Assembly: GCF_044324785.1 (NCBI RefSeq)
Contig: NZ_CP172127.1
Origin: Escherichia coli
GTDB taxonomy: Bacteria > Pseudomonadota > Gammaproteobacteria > Enterobacterales > Enterobacteriaceae
Reading direction: 5' to 3' (one strand)
Length of the DNA stretch: 64,000 nt
Shown in pieces: positions 2,879 through 28,708 of the stretch. Position numbers and translations under genes: made by a program. The notes under the pieces are model-generated. The model was not told the DNA's origin. It saw only the letters and a list, made by a program, of their open reading frames with translations, and searched no databases. The first letter of the stretch is position 1. Each line of letters opens with the position of its first letter.

Positions 2879-4384
2879 ATGAGCACTAATTTTTTACACG
2901 GTATTCGCACGCTCGAATACGACGACGGCACAAAAGAGATTAGCACGGTAGATATTTCAGTTATCGGGATTGTTGGTACTGCACCGGATTCCGCGCAATC
3001 AACCAGTTCCGAGTTAATAACAGGGAGTGCTATTTTAAAAAACCGCCTGAAATTCACGGCGACGGGACAGGGGGTGAACGGCAATTCATGGAGCGTAGAG
3101 ATTCTCGAAACCGATCCGGACGGCTGCACGGCACTGTGGAGTGATATGCCCGACGGGAGTCGACGTTTATCAATATCAGTCGCACCGGCATCCGGCTCGC
3201 ACGGATACACCCCAGCAGAAATCGTGCAGGCAGTCACAATAGCAAACCCGCCTCCGGACCAATTATTTTTAACAATTACGGCAGTAGATGTCGAGGAGGA
3301 CGCGGGAAATGTGACTGCCTCACCGTTGCAATATTTAAGCGGCGGCAGTGATGAGGCGTTCCCAATTAATACCCCCGTACTTGTTGCCGGGAGTCCAAAA
3401 AAATCCGCTTTACTGGGTGAGCGCGGCACGTTGCCGAAAGATATTGCCGATATTTTCAATCAGGACAACGCCTTGCTTGTTGTTGTACGAGTAAAAGATG
3501 ACAAAGACACAACAAAACAACAGCAAAATATTATCGACGGTGTCAAGCAGCTGGAAAAATCGAAACAGTTAACCGAAGTCACACCGCGTATTATTATTGC
3601 ACCAGATTTTAGCGCAATTGATGCGATAGCCGCTCAGCTTGAGGTGGCCGCAAATAAACTCCGGGGGGTGTGTTATATAGACTCTCCGCGCGCTGCTACC
3701 CCTGCAGACGTTGTGAATCGCCGGCAAAAACTCGGCGGACGTGCTGAGTTGTTGCGTCCCCGTGTTTATTCAACTAGCGACGTCGGGGGGCAATCAAGAC
3801 CGTATTCTGCCATCGCTGCTGGTTTACGAGCCAGAATTGATAATGAAAAAGGGTTTTGGTGGAGTAAGTCGAATCAAAATATTTATGGAATAACAGGGCT
3901 TGAGCAGGTTGATGATTTCATTATTGGCGAGACAAACTGCACAGCGAACCTGCTGAACGCTAGTCAGGTCAGCACCATCATTCGCTATGACGGATTCCGA
4001 CATTGGGGTAACTATCTGTGCAGCCTGGATCCGCAATGGTCGTTTGAATGCGTTCGTCGAACAGCTGACGTAATTGAGGATTCTATAGCCCGGGCAATGA
4101 TGACCGATTTTATTGATCGCCCGATAGACCTGCATCTCGGAACAGACGTTGTCGAGTCGATAAACGCGTATCTGCATAAATTAGAGGAGCAGGGTGCGAT
4201 TAACGGAGGGCGTGCGTGGTTAGACGGTGAGCTGAATACAAAAGAAAGTCTGGCCGCTGGCAATCTTTATATTAATGTTGATTTTGGTCCGAAATCTCCG
4301 GCACAAACAATTACGTTAATGTACCGCATTAATAATGACTATACAGTTGAAGCACTAGCCTCACTTTTTAAAGAAACAGCCTGA
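2879..4384 (+). CDS. Contractile tail sheath protein (gpFI-like)
   Basis: 501 aa; the N-terminal region (HGIRTLEYDDGTKEISTV...IGIVGTA) and later ...RYDGFRHWGN... resemble the P2 FI sheath family. Confidence 0.85.
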   Translation: MSTNFLHGIRTLEYDDGTKEISTVDISVIGIVGTAPDSAQSTSSELITGSAILKNRLKFTATGQGVNGNSWSVEILETDPDGCTALWSDMPDGSRRLSISVAPASGSHGYTPAEIVQAVTIANPPPDQLFLTITAVDVEEDAGNVTASPLQYLSGGSDEAFPINTPVLVAGSPKKSALLGERGTLPKDIADIFNQDNALLVVVRVKDDKDTTKQQQNIIDGVKQLEKSKQLTEVTPRIIIAPDFSAIDAIAAQLEVAANKLRGVCYIDSPRAATPADVVNRRQKLGGRAELLRPRVYSTSDVGGQSRPYSAIAAGLRARIDNEKGFWWSKSNQNIYGITGLEQVDDFIIGETNCTANLLNASQVSTIIRYDGFRHWGNYLCSLDPQWSFECVRRTADVIEDSIARAMMTDFIDRPIDLHLGTDVVESINAYLHKLEEQGAINGGRAWLDGELNTKESLAAGNLYINVDFGPKSPAQTITLMYRINNDYTVEALASLFKETA

Positions 4385-4401
4385 TAATTCGGAGAGTAAA
4401 T

Positions 4402-4914
4402 ATGTCAGACAGCAACGCTTACCGCGCGTTTGCGCTATTCGTGCAGGGCGAACGGGTTTTAAATTGTACTGAATATACTCCTGTCGATATGAAAATAATC
4501 GAGGACGAGTTTAAAACAGGCGCGATGGATACAGCTATCACATTAGATGGCGGTATGGAGAAAATGTCAGCCAGTTTTAAAGTTTCGGGTTCTGATTCTG
4601 GTGTTATGAGCTATTTCGGGTTAATACCGGGAGTCAAGACGCGGTTTGAAATTCGTAGTGCGTACACAGACTCCTATGGAATAAATTTTGAGCGTATTGA
4701 TACCTACGAGGGACTTATTACGGCAATCACTGATGACGCTCAGGGGACTGATTCAAAATCGTCAGTGGGGCAATCAGTAACGATTGCGCCGAGCTATTAT
4801 AAACGAGTTCAAAATGGACGAATTATTTACGAAATTCATCCTGCAAAAATGAAACGCGTTATCAACGGTGTTGATGTTCTTGCGGGCGTCGCTCGAATCC
4901 TTCATGTATATTAA
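4402..4914 (+). CDS. Tail tube protein (gpFII-like)
   Basis: 170 aa immediately after the sheath gene; size and position match FII. Confidence 0.8.
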   Translation: MSDSNAYRAFALFVQGERVLNCTEYTPVDMKIIEDEFKTGAMDTAITLDGGMEKMSASFKVSGSDSGVMSYFGLIPGVKTRFEIRSAYTDSYGINFERIDTYEGLITAITDDAQGTDSKSSVGQSVTIAPSYYKRVQNGRIIYEIHPAKMKRVINGVDVLAGVARILHVY

Positions 4915-4926
4915 AAGGTAAGTAAA

Positions 4927-5208
4927 ATGGAATCCTTATTAGACAGTATGACTATTACGCTCTCTCGACCGTTTATTATTAAGGGCGAGAGCTGCGATAC
5001 AATTACTATTCGCGAACCCAAATTACGCGACCGCATTATGTTCAGTAACGATAAAAGCAGTCTTGAAGAGCGGACAGCGACAATGCTGGCGCGCCTGGCA
5101 AATCTGGAAAGAGAGGATTTATATGCGCTCCCCGCGTGCGATTACGATCAACTGGAGGCCGCGTTTAACGAACTGGTAAAGCACCCGAAAGACCGACATC
5201 AGATATAG
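4927..5208 (+). CDS. Tail assembly chaperone (gpE-like); possible -1 frameshift extension E' to 5288
   Basis: 93-aa ORF between tube and tape measure. The -1 frame is open from 5169 to a TAA at 5286-5288. Confidence 0.55.
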   Translation: MESLLDSMTITLSRPFIIKGESCDTITIREPKLRDRIMFSNDKSSLEERTATMLARLANLEREDLYALPACDYDQLEAAFNELVKHPKDRHQI

Positions 5209-7772: not shown

Positions 7773-8816
7773 ATGAGTGATTACGTAAATACTGGCGTGG
7801 AAGCATGGAAGCCCAATTTTTATATATCTGCTGATAATGAAAACATCACGGATAAAATAAGAAAAGGTTTGATCAATATCACGCTCACAGATTATGGTGG
7901 TTCGAGTAAACAGACAGACGAATTACGCGTAGCAATCGTTTCTGAAACTCTGAAAATTCCGGCCCGCGGAGTAAAAATCAGTATTGGGCTCGGTTTCGGT
8001 AATCAGATAATTGATAAGGGTGTATACATCGTTGATGGTGCGAGCAGTGGCGGTGAACCCCGGGTAGTTGATTTCACAGCAAAAGCAGCTCCGATGAACG
8101 CATCAAAAGGCTCTCCGACAGTTCAGAGCAAAAAAACTCGCTCCTGGAGCGACGTCACTGTCAGCAATATCGTTGCAACAATAGCGAGCGATAACGGGCT
8201 AAAACCTCGCGTATCAAAGCGGTTTGCAGACAACATTATCACGCAGCTCGATCAAGTCGGCGAGTCAGATATGCACCTGATGTCGCGGCTCGCAACGAGA
8301 TTCGATGCGGTGAGTAAACCCGCGGGCGGGTACTGGATATTCCTGCCGCGCGGCGCGGGCGAATCTGTTAGCGGAGCACCGCTTCAGCACTACACGCTCA
8401 CGCGTCGTGATAACTCAAGCTGGGGTTATTCGAGAAATGGACAAAACGGTGATAGTGGCGGAGGTGGCGAAAATGCGGAGCCAACGTATTTGATCAAATA
8501 TCACGATACAGCAACGGGGCAGATCAAAGAATTGCGTACGGGCAGTGGCGGCGATCCTGTAATCGAGTGGCCGGCAGTGGAGCCGTCGCTTGATGCAGCG
8601 AAAGAAGCTGCGCCAGGACTCAAGGGCGGTGCAGCTAAAAAAGAGTTCTCCATGACTTACACGACGCCCGCGACGCTCGATTTAGTATCGCTGACTGCAG
8701 AATGCAAAGTCACAACACAAGGATTCGGGACAGAGGAGGACCGAGACTGGACAATCAATACGTTGACGCTGACGCTGGCTGAAAACGGATTCTCTGCGCG
8801 ACTGTCGCTGGAGTAA
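7773..8816 (+). CDS. Tail protein D-like
   Basis: 347 aa immediately after the X-like gene, as in R-type pyocin/phiCTX-like clusters. Confidence 0.65.
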   Translation: MSDYVNTGVEAWKPNFYISADNENITDKIRKGLINITLTDYGGSSKQTDELRVAIVSETLKIPARGVKISIGLGFGNQIIDKGVYIVDGASSGGEPRVVDFTAKAAPMNASKGSPTVQSKKTRSWSDVTVSNIVATIASDNGLKPRVSKRFADNIITQLDQVGESDMHLMSRLATRFDAVSKPAGGYWIFLPRGAGESVSGAPLQHYTLTRRDNSSWGYSRNGQNGDSGGGGENAEPTYLIKYHDTATGQIKELRTGSGGDPVIEWPAVEPSLDAAKEAAPGLKGGAAKKEFSMTYTTPATLDLVSLTAECKVTTQGFGTEEDRDWTINTLTLTLAENGFSARLSLE

Positions 8817-18765: not shown

Positions 18766-19881
18766 TTAGAACTGGTAGACGATACCAACTGCAAACTGGT
18801 CATCAGCTGCTGCGCCAGTAATGGCGGCGTCATCTTTATCCAGCATGTTGAATTTGTATGCAGTATAAACGTTCATGTTCTTATTGAAGTAGTACCAGGT
18901 ACCAACTTCAATGTAGTTCACACGGTCAGCGTCAACATATCTATGTCCAGGTACACCTTTGATATCTTTACCTTTAGAATACACATAACCTAAGGACGGA
19001 CGCAGACCAAAGTCGAATTGATACTGAACAACCGCTTCAAAGTTCTGGGTTTCATTGATAAGTTGATCACGCATTATTGTATTGCCTTCTCGATCGGCAA
19101 CACCTGTATCAATAGAACCCGGAGTCATATTACGAGTTTCACCGTACATTACAGCTGCGTAGACATTGTTCGCGTCATACTTTGCAGCCAATGACCACAG
19201 TTCAGCATTTGAACCGTTTCCATCGGCAACTTGATCGTTGGTGCGATCAGATTTGCTATATGCACCAACGATACCAAAACCATTGATGTTATAGTCTACA
19301 GACAACGCATAGCCGTCACCATTTTGTTTCTTAGTGCTACGGTTGCTGTTTTTGCCTTGGTACTGAATCGCAAAATCAAGACCATCAACCAGGCCAAAGA
19401 AATCATAGTTACGGTAGGTTGCAACACCGTTGGTACGACCATTCATGAAGTTGTCAGCGGAAGCCCAGGAATCGCCACCCCATTCAACTAACATATCGGT
19501 ATAAGCTGCGGCATCATAAGCAACACCGTAGTTACGGCCATAGTCAAATGATCCTAACTCGTTATATTTCAAACCGGCGAAGGTTAAACGGGTTTTTTCC
19601 TGGTTTTCACCTTCAGGTTTGCTGGCGTCGAGGTTGTATTCAAACTGACCGAAACCAGTCAGTTCGCTGGTGATTTGGGTTTCACCTTTAACACCGAAAC
19701 GAGCATAGGAGGTATCTTCGTTTTCGCTGTTATTATCATCAGTATTTGACCAGATGCGTTCGCCAACCATCTTGCCGTAGAAATCAACTTTATTGCCATC
19801 TTTATTATAAATTTCAGCCGCATTTGCTGCGCCAGCAACTAATAACGCCGGGACCAGCATTGCCAGAACTTTTCTTTTCAT
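18766..19881 (-). CDS. yedS: OmpC/OmpF-family outer-membrane porin, apparently intact (YedS-like)
   Basis: Signal peptide [21 protein letters not shown], then [10 protein letters not shown], and C-terminal ...VGIVYQF typical of general porins. One uninterrupted ORF at the K-12 yedS position. Confidence 0.85.
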
Positions 19882-20192
19882 TATGTATTCCCTTGTGATT
19901 ATAATCTTCATGAATATATCAATAAGTGCCGTTATCCAAAAAAAAGCACATTTGGATACTATTCTATGAAGTTCATTTTATTTTAAGGATTACATGTAAC
20001 AAATGTATTTAAAAGATTTCAAAATGTTTCTAATCTATTTAATATAATTCAGAATTATGAATTCTAGATATAAATATTCATGATAATTATGAATATATAT
20101 CAATATGTTATGAGTTGATTGGAAAGATAGGAAGTATCAATGATTGCGGCGCTAAACGGCTGATGTGATCACGCGCACATTAATGAAGGCAT

Positions 20193-20220
20193 AAAAAAAA
20201 GCCGGCATCATGCCGGCCCA
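20193..20220 (-). terminator. Strong rho-independent terminator (minus strand) in the yedS-yedR intergenic region
   Basis: GC-rich hairpin GCCGGCATCATGCCGGC, followed on the minus strand by eight T. Confidence 0.6.
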
Positions 20221-20429
20221 AAAAATATAAACAAGACGATAAAAGGCTAATAACGGGGTTATCATGACACAGAAATCAAAAAAGGTATAATTGAATTCGC
20301 TGCTAATATATTGTTTAGGTGAATTAATAAAACCATTACCATAGATAATAATAAATCTTCATTGCTGTTTTTCCGGTAATTATTGCCGTTGCGCAAAAAT
20401 TATCTATTTGTTCAAAAAATGATTGAGTC

Positions 20430-20813
20430 TTGACTGGCTCATCCAATGTGGAAAAATGTGACTTTTATCACATAATAGTACTAAGTCTGAATTTTCCGGG
20501 TTATCTCAAAATGGAATACGGTTCGACAAAGATGGAAGAGAGACTCTCTCGCAGCCCTGGCGGCAAATTGGCTTTGTGGGCTTTCTATACATGGTGTGGC
20601 TATTTTGTCTGGGCAATGGCGCGTTACATCTGGGTGATGAGCCGGATCCCCGAAGCCCCCGTGTCGGGATTTGAAAGCGATTTAGGCTCTACCGCGGGAA
20701 AGTGGTTAGGGGCACTGGTCGGCTTTTTATTTATGGCACTGGTCGGGGCATTGTTAGGCAGCATTGCCTGGTACACCCGACCTCGTCCCGCACGTAGCAG
20801 ACGCTATGAATAA
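20430..20813 (+). CDS. yedR: Inner-membrane protein YedR
   Basis: Small two-TM protein at the conserved position upstream of yedJ; exact start uncertain. Confidence 0.65.
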   Translation: MTGSSNVEKCDFYHIIVLSLNFPGYLKMEYGSTKMEERLSRSPGGKLALWAFYTWCGYFVWAMARYIWVMSRIPEAPVSGFESDLGSTAGKWLGALVGFLFMALVGALLGSIAWYTRPRPARSRRYE

Positions 20814-28618: not shown

Positions 28619-28708
28619 AACACATCAGATTTCCTGGTGTAACGAATTTTTTAAGTGCTTCTTGCTTAAGCAAGTTTCATCCCGACCCCCTCAGGGTCGG
28701 GATTTTTT
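28619..28708 (+). ncRNA. dsrA: DsrA small regulatory RNA
   Basis: AACACATCAGATTTCCTGGTGTAACGAATTTTTTAAGTGCTTCTTGCTTAAGCAAGTTTCATCCCGACCCCCTCAGGGTCGGGATTTTTTT matches DsrA as I remember it, including the terminator hairpin and U-tail. Confidence 0.9.

Follow-up and report, generated by a model that had tools for sequence, protein, structure and literature searches.

A full-length rseX small-RNA gene, orthologous by sequence to that of K-12, in the AT-rich yedS–drpB spacer of an Escherichia coli genome

The stretch of Escherichia coli DNA considered here (64,000 nucleotides of contig NZ_CP172127.1, hereafter the window) contains an intergenic spacer that is flanked by a porin gene of the yedS type on one side and by drpB (yedR), yedJ, dcm, and vsr on the other. 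The porin gene (18766–19881, minus strand) is an intact open reading frame (ORF) of 371 codons of the OmpF/OmpC/PhoE family, whereas yedS of strain K-12 is a pseudogene; the encoded protein falls below all three equivalog cut-offs, as expected for YedS. The four genes on the other side all lie on the plus strand, and two of their products were identified with curated protein models, namely DrpB (151 bits against a cut-off of 50) and the YedJ phosphohydrolase (456.7 bits against 286). The spacer itself is AT-rich, as a first-pass annotation of the sequence had described it, with GC fractions of 0.20–0.38 in 200-nt windows across 19900–20499 vs approximately 0.5 in the flanking genes. The nearest complete genome, that of E. 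coli CFSAN061771, is 98.25% identical over 8.6 kb and has the same annotated gene order. Neither CFSAN061771 nor any other genome among the matches listed carries a PGAP feature at the position discussed below, and because PGAP annotates nothing there, the region looks empty in ordinary annotation.

The spacer contains a Rho-independent terminator that is read on the minus strand. At 20190–20219, the plus strand runs cat-AAAAAAAA-GCCGGCA-TCA-TGCCGGC-CC, so that the minus-strand transcript has a stem of GCCGGCA and UGCCGGC (20217–20211 and 20207–20201), a UGA loop, and eight U on the 3' side (eight A at 20193–20200 on the plus strand). Including two G-U pairs, the stem grows to nine pairs (20219..20199), with six G-C pairs and a loop of three nucleotides. 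This is the GC-rich hairpin with a run of eight U from which the first-pass annotation had started, and it is the sole terminator-like site returned by a terminator scan of 19850–20550 (mean of 0.3 in shuffled sequences). Since the genes upstream in the minus-strand sense are all on the plus strand, there is no protein gene on the minus strand that the hairpin could terminate; the minus strand offers only mechanical ORFs of 36–44 amino acids (aa) there, and the statement that no protein gene immediately precedes the hairpin on its strand is thus upheld.

When the entire window was scanned against Rfam 15, the family RF01401 (rseX, Hfq-binding RNA) matched the minus strand at 20194..20283, with a score of 97.8 bits vs a gathering score of 50 and an E-value of 3.2e-12 for the 64-kb window. 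The match covers model positions 1–94 of 94 and is therefore full-length. All other Rfam families stay below their gathering scores in this interval, the best of them at 24.6 bits; AniS, Esr41, RyhB, and Bp1_781, which scored 21–24 bits over the terminator vs gathering scores of 50–102, were rejected as generic terminator matches. In the curated MG1655 record, drpB (previously named yedR) and the yedS pseudogene flank the ncRNA gene rseX (b4603; 2033649..2033739, 91 nt), and the published drawing of the locus has the order and orientation yedS' <-rseX- -drpB-> (PMC7648144). The window has its match at the orthologous position, in the yedS–drpB spacer and divergent from drpB. The alignment of MG1655 rseX to window positions 20283..20193, which was the check that the first-pass annotation had called for, is gap-free and identical at 83 of 91 bases; together with the terminator scan, it points to a unit of approximately 91 nt that ends at the Rho-independent terminator. 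All eight differences are confined to RNA nt 6–9 (ATTA in K-12, TGAT in the window) and nt 24–27 (GCTT in K-12, AACC in the window), and the 3' 64 nt (nt 28–91) are unchanged.

By sequence, we therefore regard positions 20283..20193 on the minus strand as the orthologue of E. coli K-12 rseX (b4603), turning the earlier guess that RseX might be encoded between yedR and yedS into a specific assignment. The interval originally proposed for the transcript, 20193–20300, was right at its 3' end but overshot by 17 nt into the promoter region at the other, since homology to K-12 and Rfam places the 5' end of the RNA at 20283. The window copy shares with RseX of K-12 its locus, strand relation, length of 91 nt, terminator, and nt 28–91, including the predicted seed and the terminator loop. 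K-12 differs from the window in the eight substitutions, a shorter predicted 5' stem, a stronger predicted pairing with ihfB, and TACAAT in the position of the -10 hexamer. The gene at this locus is thus an already known one, described in 2006 and curated both in Rfam and in the MG1655 record; the original description of RseX is reportedly that of Douchin et al. in the Journal of Biological Chemistry (JBC). The coordinates of the gene and of the elements within and beside it are collected in Table 1.

Table 1. Positions of rseX in the window, of the parts of its predicted RNA, and of neighbouring promoter-like elements.
Feature	Window position	Strand	RNA nt	Basis and remarks
rseX gene, 91-nt sRNA	20193..20283	-	1-91	5' end 20283, 3' end 20193; RF01401 match and alignment to b4603
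Rho-independent terminator, GGGCCGGCA-UGA-UGCCGGCUU	stem-loop 20219..20199, U8 20200..20193	-		terminator scan, minimum-free-energy (MFE) fold
A/U-rich single-stranded stretch, UUUAUAUUUUUU	20220..20231	-	53-64	sequence; unpaired in MFE and centroid folds
Conserved core, GUUAUUAGCCUUUUAUCGUCU, predicted seed	20234..20254	-	30-50	duplex predictions, genus alignment
5' hairpin	20246..20270	-	14-38	Rfam consensus structure, MFE fold of window RNA
5' hairpin loop	20260..20255	-	24-29	main polymorphic site; 4 of 8 differences from K-12
Putative weak sigma-70 promoter of rseX	20290..20317	-		TAAACA (20317..20312), 16-nt spacer, TTCAAT (20295..20290); 8/12
Sigma-70-like element, ATGACA-16-TATAAT	20264..20291	+		promoter scan, 11/12; predicted start ~20298

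The window RNA folds with an MFE of -19 kcal/mol (z = -2.06), and the terminator dominates both the MFE and the centroid fold. The predicted 5' stem, of 7 bp, is longer than that of K-12, and the K-12 allele folds at -16.5 vs -19.0 kcal/mol for the window allele. When the Rfam structure, which comprises the 5' hairpin at nt 14–38 and the terminator at nt 65–85, is laid over 14 alleles and species, 97.3% of the alignment cells are paired (94–100% for the 5' hairpin in these 14 sequences). Compensatory changes are absent from this set and the pairing is the same as in shuffles; because the stems are invariant, covariation lends the RseX structure no support, and the structure rests on thermodynamics and on the canonical terminator pattern. 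An A/U-rich single strand combined with a 3' U-tail is the usual layout of Hfq-dependent small RNAs (sRNAs). The corresponding sequence features, an unpaired UUUAUAUUUUUU ahead of the terminator and a tail of eight U, are present in the window copy, and together they form a putative module of the Hfq-binding type. The mature RNA would accordingly comprise a 5' hairpin whose loop varies, a single-stranded and invariant core at nt ~30–50, the A/U-rich stretch, and the terminator including the U-tail.

Of the 5426 complete E. coli genomes searched with the 91-nt sequence as query, 4879 contain rseX, nearly always once per genome, and approximately 10% have no match. Only 197 genomes carry a copy with at least 99% identity to that of the window, which hence represents a minority allele within E. 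coli. For a survey beyond this species, one genome per species was searched with an 18-base pattern from the conserved core, and 37 loci were returned. Six of them are true rseX by the Rfam model (87–95 bits), all in Escherichia: E. coli E69, E. coli SCPM-O-B-8794, E. albertii, E. whittamii, Escherichia sp. E1V33, and Escherichia sp. MOD1-EC7003. The 31 matches outside Escherichia are scattered over unrelated taxa and were discarded; the four of them that were tested against Rfam (a Pluralibacter metagenome-assembled genome [MAG] and three controls) were all negative. Within the reach of the 18-base pattern, rseX is confined to Escherichia. A Salmonella origin of rseX has been mentioned as a suggestion (PMC8313858); none of the Salmonella representatives matched the 18-base core, a pattern that would miss diverged homologues.

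An alignment of 15 sampled Escherichia sequences, compared by mean pairwise identity, indicates which parts of the gene are held constant. The terminator stem-loop is 100% identical in all 15 sequences, and RNA nt 29–58 are 96.7% identical when a decayed copy from strain P276M is excluded. Identity amounts to 84% at RNA nt 1–12, 56% at nt 23–28 in the 5' hairpin loop, and 68% in the upstream DNA from -60 to -13. Judged from this alignment, constraint appears to act on nt 29–58 and on the whole terminator, loop included, whereas nt 6–9 and nt 23–28 appear free to vary; throughout the genus, the transcribed part is clearly subject to purifying selection, and its flanks drift. The window, with AACCCC in the loop (GCTTCC in the K-12 type) and TGAT at nt 6–9, is closer to the other Escherichia species than K-12 is, and the comparison points to K-12 as the carrier of a less typical rseX allele and to the window allele as genus-typical.

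Losses of the gene also occur. In E. coli S1-CAM-01-C, an IS3 transposase element replaces the yedS–rseX segment (extracted locus 3791–4938), and the copy of E. coli P276M (NZ_CP044293.1, extracted locus 1501–1574) is decayed, with a 7-nt deletion in the core, i.e. the predicted seed, and two other indels. The gene is dispensable in nature.

Part of the conservation at the 5' end might have another cause. The plus-strand element ATGACA-16-TATAAT (Table 1) is the sole site matching at least 11 of 12 consensus positions in the 64-kb window; its -35 hexamer lies inside rseX at nt 15–20, and its -10 hexamer covers rseX positions -8..-3. Every E. coli allele sampled keeps both hexamers, as do four further Escherichia species, with GATAAT in E. 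albertii. Identity is 95% across the 6 nt that directly precede the rseX +1 position, among them four of the six bases of the plus-strand -10 hexamer, vs 85–87% for the putative -10 hexamer of rseX. The 5' block of rseX could accordingly be conserved mainly as a plus-strand promoter directed toward drpB, with rseX being secondary and the two divergent promoters competing for RNA polymerase. We consider this reading unlikely, albeit the best of those that compete with rseX itself. At least one such 11/12 site arises in 6.3% of dinucleotide shuffles of the AT-rich spacer; the -35 hexamer sits in a conserved RNA, so that its own conservation needs no extra explanation; and the experimentally mapped drpB promoter is a different site, ~170–220 nt farther downstream of ATGACA-16-TATAAT (PMC7648144). 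A plus-strand promoter also leaves the invariant seed and terminator unexplained, and for this reason it at most adds to the explanation by rseX. As such an addition, the element could, on a speculative view to which we assign a low probability, drive a so far unannotated transcript, a leader or a non-coding RNA, toward drpB and, via the shared -10 region, help to silence rseX besides H-NS, and the allele differences (nt 6–9; loop AACCCC vs GCTTCC) may alter secondary targets such as ihfB.

The promoter of rseX proper is less conspicuous. A standard scan (threshold 9/12) returned no minus-strand promoter of at least 9/12 directly upstream of the gene, and the putative hexamers listed in Table 1 come from a lenient scan of the aligned upstream regions; their assignment is to that extent an interpretation of the alignment. 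The candidate -10 hexamer at -12..-7 reads TTCAAT in the window, TACAAT in K-12, and TACAAT or TAAAAT in most other sequences. The T at -11 is shared by the window, CFSAN061771, and E. coli SCPM-O-B-8794, in all of which the RNA is otherwise intact. The A at -11 of a -10 hexamer is normally critical; because TTCAAT has a T there, the putative promoter may be even weaker in the window than in K-12. The window TTCAAT (20290–20295, minus strand) is also part of a GAATTC EcoRI site. For K-12, 5' RACE supports a sigma-70 promoter of rseX, and native RseX was undetectable in K-12/BW25113 unless H-NS, which StpA backs up, was removed (PMC8313858). The low GC content of the spacer in the window fits an H-NS target. 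By homology, rseX would be transcribed from a weak sigma-70 promoter that is silenced by H-NS/StpA in the AT-rich yedS–drpB spacer, and the transcript would end at the GC-rich hairpin and its eight U.

The same observations invite the question of whether the gene is still in use. With the -11 A lost, a best promoter score of 8/12, nothing of at least 9/12 directly upstream, native RseX undetectable in K-12 as long as hns is present (PMC8313858), and the gene missing, replaced, or decayed in some genomes as described above, rseX of the window might be a decaying remnant with an intact RNA sequence that is transcriptionally dead through the lost -11 A and H-NS coating. In that case, the hairpin would amount to no more than a terminator out of use or an insulator preceding the yedS promoter. 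We hold this to be improbable: purifying selection on the transcribed part next to drifting flanks is hard to explain for a gene that is never expressed, TTCAAT is also found in the CFSAN061771 and SCPM-O-B-8794 lineages, where the RNA has otherwise remained intact, and the argument leans on a -10 hexamer that is itself an inferred assignment.

The notion that the terminator ends a small coding gene, i.e. that a 37-aa ORF (20152..20265, minus strand; AUG at RNA nt 19) makes the transcript a small mRNA or a dual-function RNA, can be put aside as very improbable: the ORF does begin with ATG on the correct strand within the rseX transcript, and its first ~15 codons resemble one another across the sequences sampled, but in the window it passes the terminator and continues 41 nt beyond, leaving the terminated RNA without a stop codon, length polymorphisms of the U-run shift the frame after codon ~15 so that the C-terminus takes three different forms or a stop falls within the hairpin, the sequence upstream of the AUG (UUUCUGUGUC) contains no purine-rich Shine-Dalgarno sequence, and no codon position varies in the conserved part, not even the third, where wobble would be expected of a coding sequence; such invariance is the signature of constraint at the RNA level.

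The reading as rseX, i.e. as a gene for the 91-nt, Hfq-dependent, trans-acting sRNA RseX with a silenced promoter and a role in porin repression, is thus in our view almost certainly the best explanation as a whole. Nothing speaks against the identity of the gene, and the caveats concern only its function in the source strain. The present analysis itself establishes which gene this is, where it lies and ends, its terminator, how it is conserved, and that the predicted seed has not changed in this allele; Hfq dependence, targets, and H-NS silencing are taken from the K-12 literature, and it is from there that we infer that the source strain's copy is expressed and acts as in K-12.

RseX is a 91-nt RNA that downregulates OmpA and OmpC (PMC7648144). 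It represses ompA and ompC in an Hfq-dependent manner and also represses fimB and ihfB, and its pairing site on ompA was never mapped by mutation (PMC8313858). The Hfq dependence of K-12 RseX has been reported twice (PMC8313858; PMC11979758). More recently, the 3' 40 nt of RseX (RseX+52) were found to be enough to repress fepA via the terminator loop; this repression needs Hfq and RNase E, and base pairing to fepA was not detected (PMC11979758). The implicated 3' part is identical in the window and in K-12 and invariant in the 15 sampled sequences.

Pairing of the window and K-12 alleles with K-12 target sequences was predicted by a windowed duplex search that takes opening energies into account, i.e. 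is corrected for accessibility. Plain RNAduplex runs of full-length RseX against the ompA and ompC leaders had given end-to-end duplexes of -43 to -48 kcal/mol, which are meaningless, and were replaced. On ompA, RseX nt 37–50 are predicted to pair with positions -20..-6, over the Shine-Dalgarno sequence, with -13.0 kcal/mol for K-12 and -13.8 kcal/mol for the window. On ompC, the predicted duplex also lies over the Shine-Dalgarno sequence and involves nt 30–44 in K-12 (-8.1 kcal/mol) and nt 23–43 in the window (-8.2 kcal/mol). The predictions for fimB pair nt 30–49 with target positions -3..+22 (K-12 -17.5, window -16.8 kcal/mol), and those for ihfB pair nt 12–31 with -10..+8 (K-12 -14.0, window -7.9 kcal/mol). 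In controls with shuffled sRNA bodies, the ompA value was reached by two of 40, and the ompC value, a duplex of -9.5 kcal/mol in the shuffle-controlled run, by six of 40; the predictions are consistent with the published targets, though not strong evidence alone, and the support they give for ompC is weak. The leader of the neighbouring porin gene yedS was tried as a further partner and rejected, its best duplex reaching -5.6 kcal/mol and 32 of 40 shuffled controls being as good.

The predicted seed (nt 30–50) is identical in the window and K-12. Among the predicted sites, that on ihfB is the sole one overlapping the polymorphic loop and the only one weakened in the window allele. In the window, no part of RseX with a published or predicted function (core, A/U-rich stretch, terminator loop, and U-tail) is altered, except possibly the ihfB site.

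Transferred to the window, the K-12 results suggest the following course of events. The A/U-rich stretch and the terminator with its tail of U are elements of a type bound by Hfq; aided by this protein, the core would pair with ompA and ompC (and fimB) in their ribosome-binding regions, and this pairing would block translation and lower porin synthesis. Lowered porin synthesis would also be how multicopy rseX bypasses the requirement for the RseP protease. The terminator loop would additionally mediate the repression of fepA by a route that apparently does not involve base pairing.

According to the literature, RseX resembles MicA, RybB, MicC, MicF, and OmrA/B in being a short, Hfq-bound RNA with a Rho-independent terminator that base-pairs with omp mRNAs on or close to their ribosome-binding sites. 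RseX and MicA have ompA as a common target, and ompC is common to RseX and MicC/RybB. In the Rfam scan, RseX shows no sequence relation to any of these sRNAs. It is not under sigma-E or OmpR control and is silenced by H-NS/StpA instead (PMC8313858). SdsR and ArrS likewise repress fepA via the terminator loop and require Hfq and RNase E to do so (PMC11979758), but they are unrelated to RseX in sequence and locus.

For discovery, the result carries little weight, being the correct re-identification of a known gene. Its uses lie elsewhere. PGAP-annotated RefSeq genomes show no feature at this position, with the consequence that annotation-based scans keep flagging rseX as an ‘orphan terminator’. 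The pattern of constraint among alleles fits the role recently reported for the terminator loop, and the allele survey points to nt 30–50 as the seed for ompA and ompC. K-12, the strain of all experiments, has the less typical version of the loop, and its yedS is a pseudogene; strains like that of the window may for these reasons be better suited to the study of how RseX is used naturally.

Several other features of the window were recorded. On the yedS side of rseX, the 18 nt that follow the U-tail (20175–20192, minus strand; AUGCCUUCAUUAAUGUGC) are 94% identical across Escherichia species, far above the value for the DNA upstream of rseX, and might be part of the regulatory region upstream of yedS. 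The yedS upstream region at 19900–20110 has a GC fraction of approximately 0.20 and contains several imperfect direct and inverted repeats of the motif ATGAATAT/ATATTCAT, e.g. 19901–19917 vs 20074–20090 and a near-palindrome at 20070–20100; these repeats are candidate sites for a regulator or for H-NS.

On the drpB side, the mechanical ORF of DrpB starts with TTG at 20430 and encodes 127 aa. The experimentally supported start is ATG-22 of the old annotation (PMC7648144), which corresponds to ATG 20511 in the window and gives a protein of 100 aa. The drpB promoter was located between the old GTG-1 and ATG-22 (PMC7648144), and two promoter-like sequences, TTGACT-16-AAAAAT (with TG) at 20430–20457 and TGGAAA-16-CATAAT at 20449–20476, lie in or beside this interval.

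Positions 8000–32000 of the window have ~97% identity at 89–93% coverage to their best matches among the 5426 complete E. coli genomes, and around rseX the window is 93.8% identical to K-12; the source lineage may be poorly represented among complete genomes and/or the region may be polymorphic to an unusual degree. The annotation beneath the best matches of 8000–32000 includes a prophage tail-fibre gene. Elsewhere in the window, the Rfam scan found a full-length gene for the DsrA sRNA at 28619–28705 on the plus strand (RF00014; 102.5 bits vs a gathering score of 60) and a cluster of three tRNA genes at 61625–61924, also on the plus strand (RF00005; 69.1, 54.0, and 57.7 bits).
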